DNA of 64,000 bases from Escherichia phage vB_EcoM_IME537, in sequence record NC_054921.1. One strand, 5' to 3'. This document shows, piece by piece, positions 2,804 through 50,221 of the stretch. How positions within the stretch are numbered: the first letter of the stretch is position 1; the number at the start of each line of letters is the position of its first letter. The position numbers and the translations under genes are program-made. Under the pieces are notes generated by a model, which saw nothing but the letters and a program-made list of their open reading frames with translations, was not told the origin of the DNA and did no database searches.

Positions 2804-3160
2804 TTAAAGAAATTTAAATTTTTTCTTTGACCTTTTATTAAATGCATCTTGTAGTTGCATTGTAATACATTTTTCTACATGAGGAGCTAACTCAGCTTTT
2901 CTTTCTTGGTCAAGAACAGCAAAGTCCATTACGACTTTTCCATCAACCCAATCTAATTTTGTCACATACACAATGTGTGTAGAACCATCTTCTAGTTTAA
3001 TGACAATCTCCTGGATAACATTTTCCATGGCAGATTTAATTATCTTAAGGGATTCATTAAAAAGACGTTCTTTTCTTTCTTCTTCCCCCTCCGAAGAGGG
3101 GGATTCGTCGATAATTTCTAAATCTAAATCATCTTTATTCATTAAATTCTTCCATATCAC
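2804..3160 (-). CDS. 40: gp40-position protein (head assembly accessory)
   Basis: 118 aa acidic ORF between 41 and uvsX, as in T4. Confidence 0.45.
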   Translation of the reverse strand: MIWKNLMNKDDLDLEIIDESPSSEGEEERKERLFNESLKIIKSAMENVIQEIVIKLEDGSTHIVYVTKLDWVDGKVVMDFAVLDQERKAELAPHVEKCITMQLQDAFNKRSKKKFKFL

Positions 3161-4316
3161 TTAACTGATCTAGGTCAGTTTCTAAATCAGCTGCTGATTT
3201 ACTTTTACTTTCTGGAGATTTAAATTTTTCAACCTTTGAGTTAATTAATTCATCAACTTCAGCTTCAACAATTTCATTGCTATCAATAGCACCTAACTGA
3301 TAAGCACGTTTAATAGCATCTCGGAATGGCTGATGTTTAAATAAAGGACCCCAGAATGTAGTGCAATTGGTATCTTTTGCACGCCAAGATTTTTCTTCGC
3401 GAATCATCTCGCCGGTTTCTTCGTCAAGAAATTCACGAGCATACCAGCCATTTTTAGGTTTTACTACAAATCCTAATTCAAGAGCCATATCTAACAATCC
3501 AGAATAAGGATCGATACCACCGTCAAATTTAACATCAATAAAGAATTTACTTTTTTCTTTAACGGTACGAGATTTTTCTACATTTAGAACAAATTGATAC
3601 CCCTGAAGATCAGAACCATCTTTAATCTGGCGCTTACCGATAATGAATACAGTATCAGCCGAATACATTACGCCTGTACCACCTGTCATCACGGTTTTAC
3701 TAAACATTTCAATTGTTTCAATTGTATGGTTAACCGCAACACATGGAATGTTTTTAATACTAAAATAAGGAGTAACGATACGGAATAATGACTTCAGTGA
3801 TTTAGCACGAGTCATATCTGCCACAGATTTTTCATTCAAGGCATCTTCCGTTTCTTTCTTAGAAGCCATATTACCGATTGAGTCGATGAATACAATAACT
3901 TTTTCACCACGCTCGATAGCTTCAAGCTGATTCACCATATCAATTTTCAGCTGTTCAACTGACTGGATTGGTGTATGAATTACTCGTTCCGGGTCAACTC
4001 CCATGGATCGCAAATAAGCTGGAGTAATACCAAATTCGCTATCATAGAATAAACAAACCGCATCAGGATATTTGTTCAAATACGCCGCAACCATAGTCAA
4101 AGACATATTTGATTTAAAGTGTTTAGAAGGACCTGCAAAAATAGTTAAACCAGACTGCATACCGCCATCAATCGCACCGGAAATAGCAATATTAAGCATT
4201 GGGATTTTTGTACGGATTACATCCTTTTCATTAAAGAATTTAGATGTAGTCAGTTCAGCAGTCATTTTAGAAGTGGAAGCTTTAATCAAACGGGATTTTA
4301 AATCTGCAATAGACAT
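3135..4316 (-). CDS. uvsX: UvsX recombinase (RecA/Rad51 family)
   Basis: 393 aa; Walker A GPSKHFKSN, near-identical to T4 UvsX over most of its length from memory. Confidence 0.92.
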   Translation of the reverse strand: MSIADLKSRLIKASTSKMTAELTTSKFFNEKDVIRTKIPMLNIAISGAIDGGMQSGLTIFAGPSKHFKSNMSLTMVAAYLNKYPDAVCLFYDSEFGITPAYLRSMGVDPERVIHTPIQSVEQLKIDMVNQLEAIERGEKVIVFIDSIGNMASKKETEDALNEKSVADMTRAKSLKSLFRIVTPYFSIKNIPCVAVNHTIETIEMFSKTVMTGGTGVMYSADTVFIIGKRQIKDGSDLQGYQFVLNVEKSRTVKEKSKFFIDVKFDGGIDPYSGLLDMALELGFVVKPKNGWYAREFLDEETGEMIREEKSWRAKDTNCTTFWGPLFKHQPFRDAIKRAYQLGAIDSNEIVEAEVDELINSKVEKFKSPESKSKSAADLETDLDQLSDMEEFNE

Positions 4317-45633: not shown

Positions 45634-46107
45634 TTATTTGAACGATTTAACGTACTGAATAGAACCTTTACTATTCACGAAAGCGATTTTACCATTTTTA
45701 TTATACATGGTAGCAGTACGCTGATAACCATAAGTTTGTTTACCAGATTGATAACCAACTAATGCGAAATTATCTTCACCCATTTTATTCTGTTTAGCGC
45801 GAATACGTTCATGTCCATGCGCCATAAGAACCTTAGCATCACCAGTTGCAATGGATCGACGAGTTTTTTCATCTTCAACTGTATTAACAAAATCATCAAA
45901 TGAATCAAATTTAGCATGAGATTTATTATACAGTTTTCCATCTACTGCATAATTATATCCCTGTACATCCATCTCAACTTCTGTACCATCATCTAATACA
46001 GCAGTAATTTTCTGTCCTTTTTTAAATTTCAAAAGATCAGTAAAAGATTCAGCAATAATTTGAGAATTAATAGCTGCTTCAGTAATAAATTCTTGATATG
46101 TTTTCAT
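45634..46107 (-). CDS. internal-protein-like head protein with capsid-targeting leader (ipIII/ipII locus)
   Basis: 157 aa; N-terminal MKTYQEFITEAA matches the T4 internal-protein capsid targeting sequence; located next to e. Confidence 0.55.
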   Translation of the reverse strand: MKTYQEFITEAAINSQIIAESFTDLLKFKKGQKITAVLDDGTEVEMDVQGYNYAVDGKLYNKSHAKFDSFDDFVNTVEDEKTRRSIATGDAKVLMAHGHERIRAKQNKMGEDNFALVGYQSGKQTYGYQRTATMYNKNGKIAFVNSKGSIQYVKSFK

Positions 46108-46147
46108 ATGTTTCCTTTAAATGTAAATATTTTAATTAGTAACTGTG

Positions 46148-46181
46148 AATATACTATCACAGTTCTAGGAGAAAGTAAACA
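46148..46181 (-). promoter_or_regulatory. T4-type early promoter
   Basis: Minus strand GTTTACtttctcctagaactgtgaTAGTAT. Confidence 0.45.
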
Positions 46182-46184
46182 ACT

Positions 46185-46715
<531 letters not shown>

Positions 46716-47171
46716 TTAAAAGAGGTTGTTCATTATTCGGTAAAGTGAAGGACCCATCACATATTGCCACTGAGTACGAGGAATAAGAGCAAAAGCGTCC
46801 ATCTCTGGAATCATAACGCCATCTTTATTTTCAAAATAAGACTCGCAATGGCAATTTCTAAACATCTCATGCTCTACTGGAATCGTATAATAAAATAACT
46901 GTAAGTCTTTATTACTAGAATATTTAAATACACCTAGGTCTTCTAGAAGGTCTGGATTATAATTGCTAAAACCAGTCTCTTCTAAACATTCTCTTCGTGC
47001 TGCATCTAGTACGCTTAAATCAGAATTTTCTACGCGGCCCTTTGGGATATCCCAGCGATGTGCCATCATTCCAGGCTTACGAGAACCAGTAACCCGTCCC
47101 ATGAATAAATCTTTATCTTCGGTCATAAAGATAATACCAGCTGATAGTGTTTTCATTTTAATTTCCTGCAT
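46716..47171 (-). CDS. nudE: Nudix hydrolase NudE (e.1)
   Basis: 151 aa; Nudix box GRVENSDLSVLDAARRECLEETG. Confidence 0.8.
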   Translation of the reverse strand: MQEIKMKTLSAGIIFMTEDKDLFMGRVTGSRKPGMMAHRWDIPKGRVENSDLSVLDAARRECLEETGFSNYNPDLLEDLGVFKYSSNKDLQLFYYTIPVEHEMFRNCHCESYFENKDGVMIPEMDAFALIPRTQWQYVMGPSLYRIMNNLF

Positions 47172-47641
47172 TCAGTGATAAAGTTATTTAAATTTTGAGT
47201 ATATTTCTTTTCATCAAAAATCTTTTGTTGTCTGCGTAGCCGCCATGGCATTTCAATGAACGTGTACCATATCCCAGATAATATTGCTGCTGTAAAAATA
47301 TTAACAAGTATGGTTAAAAGAATCCAATCTCCTATTCTGTCCATTGGATTTTTTATAAAAAAGTAAAATACGAATGATGTCACAGGAAGACTAATAATAT
47401 ACCACAGAATCATAATCTTATCTGTGAACCAATCAGCGTTCGTTAATTTAGCGCGACCATTATGAATACACACGAATTTATCATCTGTTGCAGTAGATGG
47501 CTTAACTGGTTGATATCCCATTCTAAACTCCCTAATCAGCAAATTTTTCATATCTTCGGAACAGCCATTCCAGTCAACTCTATCAACTGGAATGCCATCA
47601 TCCCCATCATCTAAATCATACCAGCGAGTTTTTAAAATCAT
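47153..47641 (-). CDS. membrane protein, tandem family with shared C-terminal motif
   Basis: 162 aa; two C-terminal-half TM segments; ends ...FITECRKLK. Confidence 0.45.
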   Translation of the reverse strand: MILKTRWYDLDDGDDGIPVDRVDWNGCSEDMKNLLIREFRMGYQPVKPSTATDDKFVCIHNGRAKLTNADWFTDKIMILWYIISLPVTSFVFYFFIKNPMDRIGDWILLTILVNIFTAAILSGIWYTFIEMPWRLRRQQKIFDEKKYTQNLNNFITECRKLK

Positions 47642-48000
47642 CTGATTTTCCTACAATCACTTACAAACTCTTTCATTGATTCATTTTCAATATAAGACAT
47701 GTAGTTATTATATTCTTTTAATTGTATTTTGTAATCCTTTTTTCTTTGCCAATTTATTTTAAAATTATCATAATGAAAATATAACATGGTACCAAAGAAT
47801 GAAAATAATGAAATCGCTATAGTAAAACGAAGTTCACTCCAAACCTCTGTTATAATTGCTGAACCATCGATGTTTAAAATAATACAGTCAATCATTAATC
47901 CAATAAGACTACCCGCAAGAGCTGTAAATACTGATACAGCAAGAATTAATAGTGCCTCAGGAAACGAATATTTGACTTTATTTAGTTTTGGCTTTTGCAT
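47638..48000 (-). CDS. membrane protein, tandem family member
   Basis: 120 aa; two TM segments; ends ...FVSDCRKIR. Confidence 0.45.
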   Translation of the reverse strand: MQKPKLNKVKYSFPEALLILAVSVFTALAGSLIGLMIDCIILNIDGSAIITEVWSELRFTIAISLFSFFGTMLYFHYDNFKINWQRKKDYKIQLKEYNNYMSYIENESMKEFVSDCRKIR

Positions 48001-48395
48001 CGTGATTCCTTAACAAATTTCATAATTTCATCAAATTCATACGCAGCAAGTTTAAGCTGATGTTCTTTTTTAATCTTTTTGCACTGGGCTTTCCACTCAC
48101 GTACGCGTTTACGATAATGTCTTCCTTGATACCAGTATCCTACCCAATTTACAGGTACTAATAAAAGCGGAATTATTAATGGAAGAATTAGTGTTGCTCC
48201 AAATATTGCACCAGATTCAATATCAGTCATAACGTCTATAACCATTCCAGCAATCAGCAGAATCACAAATGATACAGCTACCACAGGACCTATTAATACA
48301 TCAGTAGGAATTAGCTGACGCTTTAGTTCATACTTCACAGGTTTACTTGGAAGGTATAGTGATGGCTTTGACATATTCTCTACATTCCTTAACAA
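47982..48395 (-). CDS. membrane protein, tandem family member
   Basis: 137 aa; two TM segments; ends ...FVKESRCKSQN. Confidence 0.45.
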   Translation of the reverse strand: MLRNVENMSKPSLYLPSKPVKYELKRQLIPTDVLIGPVVAVSFVILLIAGMVIDVMTDIESGAIFGATLILPLIIPLLLVPVNWVGYWYQGRHYRKRVREWKAQCKKIKKEHQLKLAAYEFDEIMKFVKESRCKSQN

Positions 48396-48957
48396 ATTTT
48401 TCTAGTAATAAATCGCTTTCAAAATTAGGATTTTCCACGAATTTATCAAAAAGATCATCAACAATAGTCAAGATATTCTTTTTACTAAGAATACGCTTAT
48501 TTTCATATTTTGTTTCAGAATCAACTATAAGAGTAAAGAAATATTTCTTTCCCTGAAATTTTACCGTAGTATCAATATAGAACAAATTTGACTTTTGTAA
48601 ATTACGTTTAAACCATGCATCACTTAAACTATAAACGCCAAGATAATCATAATCGTCGTTTAAATAACAAACCGTCCATTCAGGAGAAATGAAATCAGTA
48701 AATTCAACATCAAAATCACACGTCAATGAATGAATTGATTCAATACTGTTAATGAGTATTCCAGGACGTATTAAAGACTTTTTACCTCTAGAAAATCTTC
48801 CAGAAAGACTTTCATCAGTTTCATATGAAGACCCCCAATAGTAATTACGTCCTTCTGCCATACGTTTAAGAGCATTTAGTAATTGGTCTGGAACATCAAC
48901 CTGTCTTTGGAACTCTTCAAACATTGAATTGAAATCACTTTGCATTTTCATTTTCAT
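48343..48957 (-). CDS. hypothetical soluble protein sharing the C-terminal motif
   Basis: 204 aa; C-terminal ...FVKECREYVKAITIPSK. Confidence 0.45.
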   Translation of the reverse strand: MKMKMQSDFNSMFEEFQRQVDVPDQLLNALKRMAEGRNYYWGSSYETDESLSGRFSRGKKSLIRPGILINSIESIHSLTCDFDVEFTDFISPEWTVCYLNDDYDYLGVYSLSDAWFKRNLQKSNLFYIDTTVKFQGKKYFFTLIVDSETKYENKRILSKKNILTIVDDLFDKFVENPNFESDLLLEKFVKECREYVKAITIPSK

Positions 48958-48976
48958 TCCTATTTACTCCAAGTAT

Positions 48977-48994
48977 AAGGGGCCGAAGCCCCTT
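48977..48994 (-). other. UUCG-tetraloop RNA hairpin
   Basis: aaggggccgaagcccctt. Confidence 0.45.
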
Positions 48995-48998
48995 ATCA

Positions 48999-49592
48999 TT
49001 ATTTCAGAGAATTAATGTATTCCTGAACATCGGCAGAGGTAGTTTCAACCCCGGAAATATTACCGTTAAAGGTTTCAACTCGAGCAAGAGTATCTTCAAT
49101 ATCAACCTTAGTCAGTGCTGCGATTTCAACTACATCATCAGCAGTACTAATTCCAAGGGCATTTGCCGCACGAGTTTCACGGATATATTCCAATTTAACT
49201 GCAAGTTCTTGGCGAGCATCATCTAACTCAACTACTTTCTTGGCGATTTCAATTCGCATTTCAGCATAACCATCAGCTTTAGTAGTCAACTGCTCAGCTG
49301 TTCGACGATATAGTAAACCGAGCTTAGCATGCATTGTTACATCTTGACCTTCGGAAAGAAGTTTGCGAATTTCACGCTCTTTTGATTCGGCTTGTCGATT
49401 CTTTTCGATAACAAGTTCACGAATACGTTTTTCTTCATTAATAGATTTAACAGAAGCAGTTTTTAGGTCTTTAATTTTATCAAGAAGTTTTGCTGCTGCA
49501 GCAGTATACTGTTCTTCGACAGATAGATTTTTAGCCATAGCAGAACCAAGTTTAGTGCGAATAAACTCAACAATTTTCTTCAGTGTGTTCAT
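48999..49592 (-). CDS. coiled-coil protein (possible PspA/IM30-like fold)
   Basis: 197 aa, largely helical heptad-like sequence; similarity to PspA is pattern-level only. Confidence 0.35.
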
Positions 49593-49635
49593 AGTATTTC
49601 CTTAGGTTAATTGAGATTTAAAATCTGCGGAAGAA

Positions 49636-50166
49636 TTATATCCCATTATTTGAGAGATGTAAACTATTTTTAATTTTACAAATTCGTTCAGCTTCATCGA
49701 TAGCAGCATTAATAATGCTTTTAGCTATAGGAGTACTAATACTAGTAGCTTTTACACTTAACACGATTTCTTTATCTTTACCAGGCCAACCCCACGATTT
49801 TTCACCGTGAGTGCCTTTAATTACAGCAGACACCTCAAGTGAGCATCCATTATCACATGTTTTTACATTAACAACCCAAGGGTCACTTTTCTCAATCGGT
49901 TTCTCAATCGGTTTATCCCAGTAAATATTAAGAATACGTGGAACATCAAATTTGGCAGGACAAATCTTAACCGTAAGACCTTCGCTTTCTAGCCAATTAA
50001 TAAGAGGGCGTTCATACAGGCGACGATGTGGGCTTGGGATTCGACAAGCCTTATGTCCGTTGCTTGCGGCTTCACTAAGCTGTTCTAATACCTGCTTTTG
50101 CATTATTGATAAAATACCATCAAAAGATCTTTCGGAAGTTTCATTCAGTTCGGTATAAAGAGACAT
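49636..50166 (-). CDS. hypothetical protein
   Basis: 176 aa ORF. Confidence 0.4.
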   Translation of the reverse strand: MSLYTELNETSERSFDGILSIMQKQVLEQLSEAASNGHKACRIPSPHRRLYERPLINWLESEGLTVKICPAKFDVPRILNIYWDKPIEKPIEKSDPWVVNVKTCDNGCSLEVSAVIKGTHGEKSWGWPGKDKEIVLSVKATSISTPIAKSIINAAIDEAERICKIKNSLHLSNNGI

Positions 50167-50221
50167 AACAGTTTCCTCAAATTATAGGCTCATAATATCT
50201 CAATCATGAGCCTATGTAAAC

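Follow-up and report, generated by a model that had tools for sequence, protein, structure and literature searches.

A shared C-terminal tail as a probable dual-use junction module in the overlapping early genes e.5 to nudE of a T4-like phage

Why four consecutive genes of a T4-like phage end in related peptides is the question raised by a locus beside nudE in Escherichia phage vB_EcoM_IME537 (NC_054921.1). The stretch analysed, here called the window, comprises 64,000 nt of a T4-like genome of about 168 kb; identity to Escherichia phage F2 over the region is 99.9%, synteny extends to e, nudE and e.2 to e.6 of T4, and about 650 Tevenvirinae genomes match the locus. The four open reading frames (ORFs) singled out in a preliminary description are indeed present next to nudE in the ORF list, all on the minus strand, and correspond to the neighbouring T4 early genes e.5, e.4, e.3 and e.2. 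The first cistron of the overlapping block e.5-e.4-e.3-e.2-nudE, e.5 (48343-48957), encodes a soluble protein of 204 aa, is syntenic with T4 e.5 and matches phrog_2607 over its full length (E = 3.4e-110); its homologues carry PF26876 according to precomputed annotation. It is followed by e.4 (47982-48374; 130 aa from the ATG, with a TTG start also present in the ORF list 7 codons upstream), whose product has two predicted transmembrane (TM) segments and a basic, presumably cytoplasmic C-terminal region and matches the phrog_2604 profile over residues 1-130 (E = 4.4e-70). The e.3 product (47638-48000; 120 aa, two TM segments) matches phrog_2330 over residues 1-118 (E = 9.2e-58) and is 78% identical to T4 e.3. 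The e.2 product (47153-47641; 162 aa) combines a 77-aa N-terminal soluble domain with two TM segments and the tail, and is placed in the T4 e.2 family by a full-length profile match to phrog_2203 (residues 1-160, E = 3e-79) and by the position of its gene upstream of nudE. Directly downstream of e.2 lie nudE (46716-47156, minus strand; 146 aa from MKTLSAG, named after the T4 annotation) and the lysozyme gene e. Neighbouring cistrons overlap by 32 nt (e.5/e.4), 19 nt (e.4/e.3), 4 nt (e.3/e.2) and 4 nt (e.2/nudE), with e.2 having ATGA overlaps at both of its ends.

The window ORFs are orthologues of T4 e.2, e.3, e.4 and e.5 (PHROGs 2203, 2330, 2604 and 2607; UniProt P32273, P32274, P39222 and P39223). 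Gene order beside nudE and e is the same in T4, where e.2 to e.4 are likewise predicted membrane proteins, whereas the T4 reference e.2 is a truncated version of 102 aa. In T4 annotation, the products are listed as conserved hypothetical or as predicted membrane proteins, and in public resources the four families stand apart from one another, without a function. Sequence searches of Pfam (in a copy without PF26876), NCBIfam and PDB assigned none of the four proteins significantly to a family. In the literature retrieved by gene name or accession, a search that lay outside the T4 review of Miller (2003), no study of e.2-e.5 function or of the tail motif was found, nor a source recording the common tail, its overlap with a ribosome-binding site or the paralogy of e.3 and e.4. 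For T4, early RNA and protein have been detected for e.2 to e.5 (supplement to PMC9697503). Genes of the e.2-e.5 block are repeatedly frameshifted in some isolates, so any function they have is dispensable. Genes with these properties, early, non-essential and membrane-associated, are typically ones for exclusion or anti-defence.

The tails, each followed directly by the stop codon, read LNNFITECRKLK in e.2, MKEFVSDCRKIR in e.3, IMKFVKESRCKSQN in e.4 and LEKFVKECREYVKAITIPSK in e.5, exactly as first noted. A motif of just 6-9 residues in an AT-rich genome with many K, E, F and I codons might be a chance likeness of short, low-complexity C-termini, but this explanation can practically be set aside. 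When the best 9-mer BLOSUM62 scores of the six tail pairs were summed, the observed value of 161 stood against 85.4 +/- 9.5 for shuffled controls, none of 2000 shuffles reaching it. Across the entire phage genome, with 424 ORFs (63,317 aa), F[VI]x[ED]CR is matched three times, solely in the tails of e.2, e.3 and e.5, and the motif is kept by orthologues in five genera. When the C-terminal 25-mers of all genome ORFs of 90 aa or more were compared pairwise (20,503 pairs), e.2/e.3 came 2nd, e.2/e.5 9th and e.3/e.5 12th. The description of the tag as a conserved, Cys-containing one holds for e.2, e.3 and e.5 and fails for e.4, whose copy is degenerate: Ser, Ile or Val replaces the Cys of the motif. 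The nearby Cys of e.4 arises where the gene overlaps the e.3 start codon (cgATGc); the Gaprivervirus-type e.4, which ends in FIKEVRNGTA, lacks it. Hence not every tail-bearing protein can make use of a Cys.

With regard to topology, hydropathy agrees with the initial view of three two-TM proteins and one soluble protein. TM-like 19-mers are found at residues 78-96 and 106-124 of e.2, about 17-40 and 57-75 of e.3, and 31-49 and 57-75 of e.4, and none in e.5 (maximum 19-residue mean 0.87). According to the charge counts of e.2, e.3 and e.4, the flanks are rich in K/R and the inter-TM loops short and acidic; the three are therefore predicted to form N-in/C-in hairpins in the inner membrane with the K/R-rich flanks in the cytoplasm. 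An AlphaFold2 (AF2) model of e.3 (mean pLDDT 82) presents a helical hairpin whose TM2 runs on as one helix (residues 58-119) into the tail, and in the low-confidence model of e.5 (mean pLDDT 63.8) the tail lies within helix 183-198; a fold search with the latter was uninformative. The positive-inside rule and these models support a cytoplasmic tail at the end of a helix in the membrane proteins and in soluble e.5 alike, a placement compatible with a common interaction element.

Searched for in other T4-like genomes, the core [LIM]xxF[IV]xxC[RK] is kept in orthologues of five genera whose proteins are only 22-36% identical elsewhere. This comparison includes Mosigvirus, Gaprivervirus, Dhakavirus and Kanagawavirus; the distant e.3 and e.5 clades were reached by tblastn and retrieval of the locus, a word-indexed protein search having yielded only close relatives. 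In e.3 orthologues, 10 columns do not vary, F and C being two of them; in e.5 orthologues ECREY is invariant across genera; and across eight diverse e.2 homologues, about 33% identical, nothing in the C-terminal half is invariant except F, C and R. The tail is not confined to the four genes of the window. It is present in six PHROG families (2203, 2330, 2604, 2607, 8788 and 32323), among them that of an unrelated 99-aa soluble ORF of phage Entb_45 (phrog_32323), and it was also found on the chimera P0072. When IMG/VR was scanned at the DNA level for degenerate encodings of F-I-x-E-C-R-K-TGA, only e.2 or e.3 orthologues and random short ORFs were returned, without further families.

Each tail is at the same time the place where the next cistron begins. 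The tail codons of e.5 (LEKFVKECR, 48379-48405, minus strand) contain in their K-E codons AAGGA, a Shine-Dalgarno (SD)-like element 11 nt before the e.4 ATG (48374), and those of e.4 (IMKFVKESR, without Cys at +4; 48000-48026, minus strand) contain AAGGA 6 nt before the e.3 ATG (48000-47998). Behind the tail codons of e.3 (MKEFVSDCR, 47650-47676, minus strand) follow R-K codons with the SD-like AGGAA, which stands 6 nt ahead of the e.2 ATG (47641). At the e.2 tail (LNNFITECR, 47165-47191, minus strand), the R-K codons again contain AGGAA, ahead of the nudE ATG (47156), the ribosome-binding site of nudE being situated inside the e.2 tail; in the e.2-less variant L013, this tail/nudE junction is used likewise. 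An SD-like element is found 6-11 nt before the next start, mostly within the motif codons, in 23 of 28 distinct junction versions. The motif codons thus have a second use, as SD element and spacer for the overlapping cistron that follows, and conservation at the K-E and R-K positions is consequently in part a matter of nucleotides. With stop/start overlaps and the SD within the upstream ORF, the block has the structure of a translationally coupled operon. A possible resemblance of AAAUUUGUUAAGGAAUGU to a RegA operator was also considered. A structured-RNA explanation of the junctions was rejected, as their folds are no more stable than those of shuffled sequences (z = +1.08, +0.39, -1.87 and +0.58).

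Translationally coupled overlapping cistrons with the SD in the 3' end of the upstream gene are common in phage and bacterial operons, and the four junctions, with overlaps of 4-32 nt and AAGGA/AGGAA 6-11 nt before the next ATG, closely resemble them. To our knowledge, however, such overlaps ordinarily give no recurring peptide motif across families, and here, unlike in ordinary cases, the same peptide persists when the SD moves to other codons. The motif could nevertheless be nothing but the translation of an initiation region, with a U-rich enhancer, SD and spacer, and the peptide itself functionless. Apart from the SD-like elements, several observations fit this. The F and I/V codons of the motif are nearly always U-rich (TTT and ATT/GTT). 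Distant homologues have G, M or Q in place of Glu exactly where the SD is kept or moved, E becoming G as AAGGAA becomes AAAGGA, so the apparent peptide motif is partly driven by nucleotides. Moreover, the frameshifted e.2 of T4 has kept its tail DNA upstream of nudE, which implies that tail DNA can persist for the translation of nudE alone.

A constraint purely on the mRNA is nonetheless judged unlikely. The unchanged Arg is encoded by AGA, AGG, CGA, CGT and CGC, i.e. by five codons of both codon families, and the unchanged Cys by both TGT and TGC, a pattern that points to selection acting on the peptide. The hydrophobic residue at position -3 is Leu encoded by CTT, CTA, TTA or TTG, besides Met and Ile. 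The F-x3-C-R spacing is constant, whereas the distance from the F to the next ATG ranges from 17 to 40 nt; the SD lies at codon +2, +5 or +10 relative to the motif, the last in Dhakavirus e.5-like proteins, 10 codons downstream of it. The invariance of F, C and R in e.2 homologues that have otherwise diverged so far is equally hard to explain by initiation of translation. Taken from comparison of sequences, these data support the existence of the tail as a genuine peptide that selection maintains on otherwise dissimilar proteins.

The dissimilarity of the proteins has to be qualified with regard to their descent. Profile-profile alignment (hhalign) of e.3 with e.4 gave a probability of 90% (E = 1.6e-6) over 41 columns of the region behind TM2, and on this basis the two are paralogues. 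For e.2, the alignment with e.3 (86%) is restricted to the tail and that with e.4 (55% over 63 columns) is weak outside it; e.2 probably shares the module of TM2 plus tail. The preliminary description had regarded the tag as a feature of divergent proteins, which stands insofar as a maintained peptide recurs in six PHROG families, and requires correction insofar as the similarity is partly due to common descent and not to a tag added to unrelated proteins. The tandem order of e.3, e.4 and probably e.2, each with a TM hairpin, basic stretch, helix and tail, is reminiscent of other tandem arrays of small paralogous phage membrane proteins; a difference is that the soluble, non-paralogous e.5 and other unrelated ORFs also bear the tail.

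Could the tails then be mere leftovers of tandem duplication or gene conversion, with no present role as a peptide or in recombination? The homology of e.3 and e.4 and the adjacency of all genes would agree with this, as would an exact 16-nt direct repeat (AAATTTGTTAAGGAAT, coding strand) that was detected by repeat search in the tails of e.4 (48005-48020) and e.5 (48384-48399) and looks like the product of recent homogenisation. Shared ancestry alone is still an unlikely account, because F, C and R are invariant across five genera in proteins whose remainder is 22-36% identical or beyond recognition. In addition, e.5 and the Entb_45 ORF bear the tail and are not paralogues of the hairpin proteins, and e.2 of VR20 keeps it though it does not lie beside e.3 and has a different downstream gene.

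The two 16-nt copies are 379 nt apart and flank exactly one cistron, e.4. The Yersinia-phage-type Tequatrovirus L013 is devoid of e.2, the crossover lying inside TGCAGGAAA, and, compared with fPSFA/VR20, e.4 is missing from Dhakavirus genomes (L009 and others), where the crossover falls within AARGRGGTTCRWAATG. Judged from these breakpoints, the repeated tails have acted as recombination points for the precise gain or loss of single genes, the two indels being readable in either direction. Like the paralogy of e.3 and e.4 and the double use of the motif codons as SD, this had escaped the preliminary description.

Short repeats at gene boundaries of non-essential T4-type regions are described as recombination points at which whole ORFs are added or removed, the PeSL being an intergenic cassette of an early promoter of sigma-70 type and a terminator stem-loop (Arbiol et al., 2010, PMC2839356; Comeau et al., 2014, PMC4122927). 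PeSL shuffling in T4-type hyperplastic regions and the present locus have in common boundary repeats with whole-gene indels (here of e.2 and e.4, with breakpoints in the tails). PeSLs differ in being intergenic, while the repeats described here lie inside coding sequence, comprise a C-terminal peptide motif and an SD, and would preserve reading frame and translational coupling upon recombination. The junctions themselves were not classed as PeSLs: they contain no intergenic DNA, no promoter- or terminator-like site and no stem-loop, their folds not exceeding those of shuffles in stability. The PeSL paper comparing T4 with PST does not mention e.2-e.5.

Taken together, we consider it probable, though far from certain, that the common tail serves as a dual-use junction module of the overlapping early operon e.5 > e.4 > e.3 > e.2 > nudE. 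At the peptide level, it would form a helix-end motif, [L/I/M]-x-x-F-[I/V]-x-x-C-[R/K], at the cytoplasmic C-terminus of e.2, e.3, e.5 and, in degenerate form, e.4, with F, C and R/K held by amino-acid selection. At the mRNA level, K-E as AAGGAA or R-K as AGGAAA would usually supply the SD and spacer for the next cistron, whose start codon overlaps or abuts the upstream stop. The copies would be related by descent: the paralogy of e.3 and e.4, together with at least the tail shared by e.2, suggests that units of gene plus junction were duplicated in tandem, and e.5 would owe the motif to its 3' end, at which the first hairpin gene is joined. Since the same 10-17 nt are repeated in frame at each junction, homologous or microhomology recombination between tails would remove or insert exactly one cistron, so that neither the reading frame upstream nor the ribosome-binding site downstream is damaged.

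The peptide may be a helix tip used in common for docking or oligomerisation in the cytoplasm, which would, e.g., tether e.5 to the e.2/e.3/e.4 hairpins or bind one shared partner. For the interaction or localisation signal first proposed, indirect support comes from conservation of the tail as a peptide, its predicted place at a cytoplasmic helix end and its occurrence behind unrelated N-terminal domains. A role centred on the Cys appears very unlikely, in which the single cytoplasmic Cys of the tail would form an inter-subunit metal site or a redox-sensitive disulphide and thereby assemble or regulate an e.2/e.3/e.5 hetero-oligomer. The invariance of this Cys in the e.2, e.3 and e.5 families, the basic residue that always follows it and a second invariant Cys in the N-terminal domain of e.2 would be in line with such a site; against it stand one Cys per chain with no His/Cys partner nearby, its absence from e.4, the reducing cytoplasm and the failure to match any metal-binding family in structure or sequence. 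Going beyond the docking tip, the tail could be a portable, self-propagating junction cassette whose peptide assembles early proteins into one complex at the cytoplasmic face of the membrane or onto one host target, an extension of the dual-use module that we regard as doubtful. If true, it would join two-TM hairpins, soluble e.5 and other soluble ORFs from at least six PHROG families, its codons providing the ribosome-binding site for whichever gene came next. A gene that entered in frame by recombination at a tail would then gain translation as well as a place in the complex, and the cassette would be the coding-sequence analogue of PeSL-type modular shuffling.

The dual-use module itself is a modest variation on two known themes, translational coupling and the modular shuffling of T4-type hyperplastic regions. 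Its impact is moderate because the genes are dispensable and their function is unassigned. Four T4 ORFs that have been orphans since genome annotation are now linked by a short peptide with three invariant residues and by predicted topology, and a recombination linker in T4-type plastic regions can apparently sit inside coding sequence. One linker would serve three uses, as peptide motif, ribosome-binding site of the next gene and in-frame crossover site, and could account for the gain and loss of single genes in translationally coupled blocks without broken expression. For motif searches, it follows that conserved C-terminal peptides of overlapping phage genes may be shaped in part by the downstream SD.

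At the upstream edge of the overlapping block, a GC-rich hairpin with a UUCG loop (48975-48996, minus strand) lies between e.6 and e.5; in other genera the stems at this position differ in sequence and the pairing is kept.

Over bases 46100-49700 the window shares 99.9% identity with Escherichia phage F2, and more than 640 Tevenvirinae records match there; the window is that of a T4-like phage. Comparison with the T4 reference places four minus-strand ORFs, e.2 (47153-47641), e.3 (47638-48000), e.4 (47982-48374), and e.5 (48343-48957), between e.6 upstream and nudE and the lysozyme gene e downstream. The ORFs themselves are already-known T4 genes with no function assigned. Each has a PHROG family of its own, matched along the entire ORF (2203, 2330, 2604, and 2607, respectively), and Pfam, NCBIfam, and PDB sequence searches with the four proteins returned nothing significant. 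Expression is documented for the T4 orthologues: a time-resolved T4 omics study lists early RNA and detected protein for all four (PMC9697503). In public records, e.3/e.4 orthologues are named sulfurtransferase, DNA primase or head outer capsid protein, and e.6 orthologues host specificity protein; since no similarity to these annotated functions was found here, the names look like propagated mis-annotations.

The preliminary description had ascribed a common Cys-bearing C-terminal tag to all four proteins and two transmembrane (TM) segments to three of them. It had quoted the tails (FITECRKLK, FVSDCRKIR, FVKESRCKSQN, and FVKECREYV) exactly, and hydropathy agrees with the proposed topology, with two TM-like segments each in e.2, e.3, and e.4 and none in the soluble e.5. 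Short, acidic or neutral loops join the TM segments, and K/R-rich stretches flank them, so that by the positive-inside rule both termini of e.2, e.3, and e.4, and with them the tails, are predicted to be cytoplasmic. The resemblance of the tails is more than chance, which is excluded as an explanation: the summed best 9-mer BLOSUM62 score of the six tail pairs is 161, and none of 2000 composition-preserving shuffles reaches it (85.4 +/- 9.5, maximum 120). A search for F[VI]x[ED]CR gives three hits in the 177 window ORFs and again three in the 424 ORFs, together 63,317 aa, that the reconstructed phage genome contains, always in the e.2, e.3, and e.5 tails. When the C-terminal 25-mers of all ORFs of at least 90 aa are paired (20,503 pairs), e.2/e.3 ranks 2nd, preceded only by one obvious paralogue pair, e.2/e.5 9th, and e.3/e.5 12th. 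The preliminary description named two results that would refute it, tail similarity no better than in shuffled controls and ORFs that are not expressed; the shuffles contradict the first, and the T4 expression data contradict the second for the T4 orthologues.

Orthologous loci of Mosigvirus, Gaprivervirus/fPSFA-type, Dhakavirus, and Kanagawavirus phages and of IMG/VR contigs were compared, and the motif is present across several genera. Orthologues of e.3 that share just 22-36% identity with the window protein have FIKECRK or FIKECKS at the C-terminus, and the tail F and C are among 10 invariant columns of their alignment. All e.5 orthologues retain F-[IV]-x-E-C-R-E-Y, including a strongly diverged Dhakavirus/Gaprivervirus form (178-184 aa, phrog_8788) linked to e.5 by an hhalign probability of 85% and a weak PHROG cross-hit. 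Homologues of e.2 at 33-37% identity, from an exhaustive phmmer search, carry FIKECRK, FIEECRK, FIKMCRNS, FIKGCRK, or FIKGCRNGHN, and the C-terminal half of an 8-sequence e.2 alignment is invariant only at the tail F, C, and R. The proposed Cys tag thus holds for the e.2, e.3, and e.5 families and fails for e.4, whose orthologues retain F-[VI]-K-E-x-R without the Cys. From the residues kept in these tails, the conserved core reads [L/I/M]-x-x-F-[I/V]-x-x-C-[R/K]. A metal or redox site built on the tail Cys is an unlikely rival reading of this conservation, to be set against the e.4 family, which lacks the residue.

The tails lie where consecutive genes meet. The e.5/e.4, e.4/e.3, e.3/e.2, and e.2/nudE overlaps measure 32, 19, 4, and 4 nt (coding strands tttgttAAGGAAtgtagagaatATG, tttgttAAGGAAtcacgATG, tttgtaagtgattgtAGGAAAatcagATGA, and tttatcactgaatgcAGGAAAttaaaATGA), and over all loci, 23 of the 28 different junction versions carry a Shine-Dalgarno (SD)-like element 6-11 nt ahead of the next start. 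This element begins at motif codon +2 in some junctions (K-E = AAGGAA, E-E = GAGGAA, K-G = AAAGGA), at codon +5 in others (R-K = AGGAAA, R-R-N = AGAAGGAAT), and 10 codons further on in Dhakavirus e.5-like genes. Judged from sequence, the tail doubles as the putative ribosome-binding site of the next gene, and the x-E and R-K positions, at which the element begins, would be partly dictated by the mRNA. The four junctions showed no unusual RNA structure (z = +1.08, +0.39, -1.87, +0.58) and no promoter- or terminator-like element, the sole hairpin lying between e.6 and e.5. A motif maintained purely at the nucleotide level would account for these SD-like elements, but is insufficient on three counts. 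The tail Arg is encoded by AGA, AGG, CGA, CGT, and CGC, the Cys by both TGT and TGC, and the hydrophobic residue at position -3 by CTT, CTA, TTA, TTG, ATG, or ATC; the F-x3-C-R spacing is constant, whereas the SD can precede, fall within, or follow the Cys codon and between 17 and 40 nt separate the F codon from the next ATG; and in VR20, e.2 retains its tail although it lies 3 kb from e.3 and upstream of a different gene. These patterns argue that the tail is selected as a peptide too. An SD within the upstream gene is commonplace at overlaps; a peptide persisting across families while the SD moves is, to our knowledge, not.

The T4-style nudE (46716-47171) starts at an ATG at 47171 (MQEIKMKT...), within the e.2 Cys codon region and without an SD. 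The ATG at 47156 (MKTLSAG...) has AGGAA 6-7 nt upstream and aligns with the N-terminus (...SAGI.F.TEDK) that the Entb_45 and VR20 junctions encode; the public annotation probably starts nudE 5 codons too early.

Common descent alone is an unlikely explanation of the tails; descent itself is supported by alignments for part of the block. For e.3 and e.4, hhalign of the family alignments gives a probability of 90% across the complete 41-column region after TM2 (E = 1.6e-6), and a BLASTP alignment at 20% identity spans both proteins in full. When the e.2 profile was made more diverse, e.2 matched e.3 in the tail only (86%) and e.4 from TM2 through the tail (55%, 63 columns). On these alignments e.3 and e.4 are paralogues, and e.2 probably has a module in common with them. 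The e.5 protein aligns with the other three in the tail only. An unrelated soluble 99-aa ORF of Enterobacter phage Entb_45 (phrog_32323) ends with the same tail, LDKFIKQCRRNQNVS, and the 83-aa protein P0072, found by exhaustive search, joins 60 unrelated soluble N-terminal residues to the last 22 residues of e.2 (FDEKKYTQNLNNFITECRKLK), and looks like a recombination product with a crossover near the tail. In AF2 models, e.3 (mean pLDDT 82) forms a helical hairpin whose unbroken helix 58-119 carries TM2 on to the motif, and e.5 (mean pLDDT 63.8, pTM 0.66) an alpha/beta fold with the motif in terminal helix 183-198.

The window's e.5 and e.4 tails contain an exact 16-nt repeat (AAATTTGTTAAGGAAT) spaced by 379 nt. 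In the Yersinia-phage-type Tequatrovirus locus L013, which is without e.2, the e.3 tail keeps to the T4-type e.3 sequence as far as TGCAGGAAA; beyond this point it matches the e.2/nudE junction identically, which gives FVIDCRKLK and then nudE. Four Dhakavirus loci (L009, L015, L018, L020) are without e.4 relative to fPSFA/VR20, and their e.5-like tails (...EYAKEVQNGTA) match the e.5-like/e.4 junction to the left of the crossover, which lies in AARGRGGTTCRWAATG, and the e.4/e.3 junction to its right. Both variants are short of exactly one cistron, yet the reading frame upstream is undisturbed and the gene downstream still has an SD; the tails are thereby marked as recombination points. Several of the genes are also found broken. 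The T4 reference e.2 (NC_000866, L001 3153-3461) is annotated with 102 aa, as against 162 aa in the window (47153-47641), F2, and most relatives, owing to a frameshift from a 1-nt difference in an A-run; its tail DNA and the downstream nudE ribosome-binding site are still intact. In L013, e.5 is split by a frameshift (3043-3658), and several e.3 entries (97-aa variants P0037-P0039, P0043) end early after NWQRKK, at a poly-A run. Such frequent breakage fits dispensability; homopolymer sequencing errors are also possible.

The genetic architecture of the tail junctions is directly observed, and the tail is most likely a dual-use junction module. At the mRNA level it would couple translation of consecutive cistrons, at the protein level it would form a conserved helix tip at the cytoplasmic membrane face, and at the genome level repeated tails would allow single genes to be removed or added without a shift of frame. 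For the peptide, we favour a common docking or oligomerisation contact, by which e.5 might be recruited to the e.2/e.3/e.4 hairpins or one shared partner bound. The closest described mechanism of gene flux in such regions is the shuffling of PeSLs, which are intergenic promoter-terminator cassettes (PMC2839356, PMC4122927); an assignment of the tail junctions to PeSLs was rejected, as these defining intergenic features are absent here. A literature search of an incomplete library found no publication on this tail motif.

Other elements surround the block. A tandem array that the window lacks, made up of 3-6 small ORFs of 65-101 aa, comes after e.3 in Mosigvirus, Dhakavirus, Gaprivervirus, and Kanagawavirus (L003 3231-4025, L004 3691-4944, L007 3851-5094, L032 28-1046). 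All of these ORFs end in W-[VIFQ]-x-S-S-x-x-C (e.g. GAWVSSSALC, GGWVSSSSEC, GFWFNSSMSC, KIWYPSSC), in most cases GGAA and the next ATG come after the stop, and by these features they form a putative second tandem family with a C-terminal Cys beside a junction SD, of the RB69ORF135c-137c type. Between e.6 and e.5, the window has a GC-rich tetraloop hairpin without a T-run (48975-48996, GGGGC-UUCG-GCCCC), and equivalents directly follow the e.6 stop in L003, L004, and L007. Since differing stems still pair across genera (GGGAGAC-UUCG-GUCUCCC; GGAGGAC-UCCG-GUCCUC; GGGGGC-UUU(G)-GCCCCC), a conserved RNA element opening the overlapping block is suggested. Two strong minus-strand sigma-70-type promoter-like sites, just upstream of e.6 (49635-49663, TTTACA-17-TATAAT, 11/12) and of e.7 (50192-50220, TTTACA-17-TATTAT, 10/12), probably serve as early promoters for the block from e.6 to nudE. 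With 176 aa, the window's e.7 (49636-50166) is longer than that of T4 (111 aa). It begins with MSLYTELN..., similar to MSLYTDLISN... of a Dhakavirus/Gaprivervirus e.5-like protein (L004 2466-3020) and to the N-terminus of a 101-aa Mosigvirus ORF (L003 404-709); this stretch may represent a further shared gene-boundary segment, at 5' ends.
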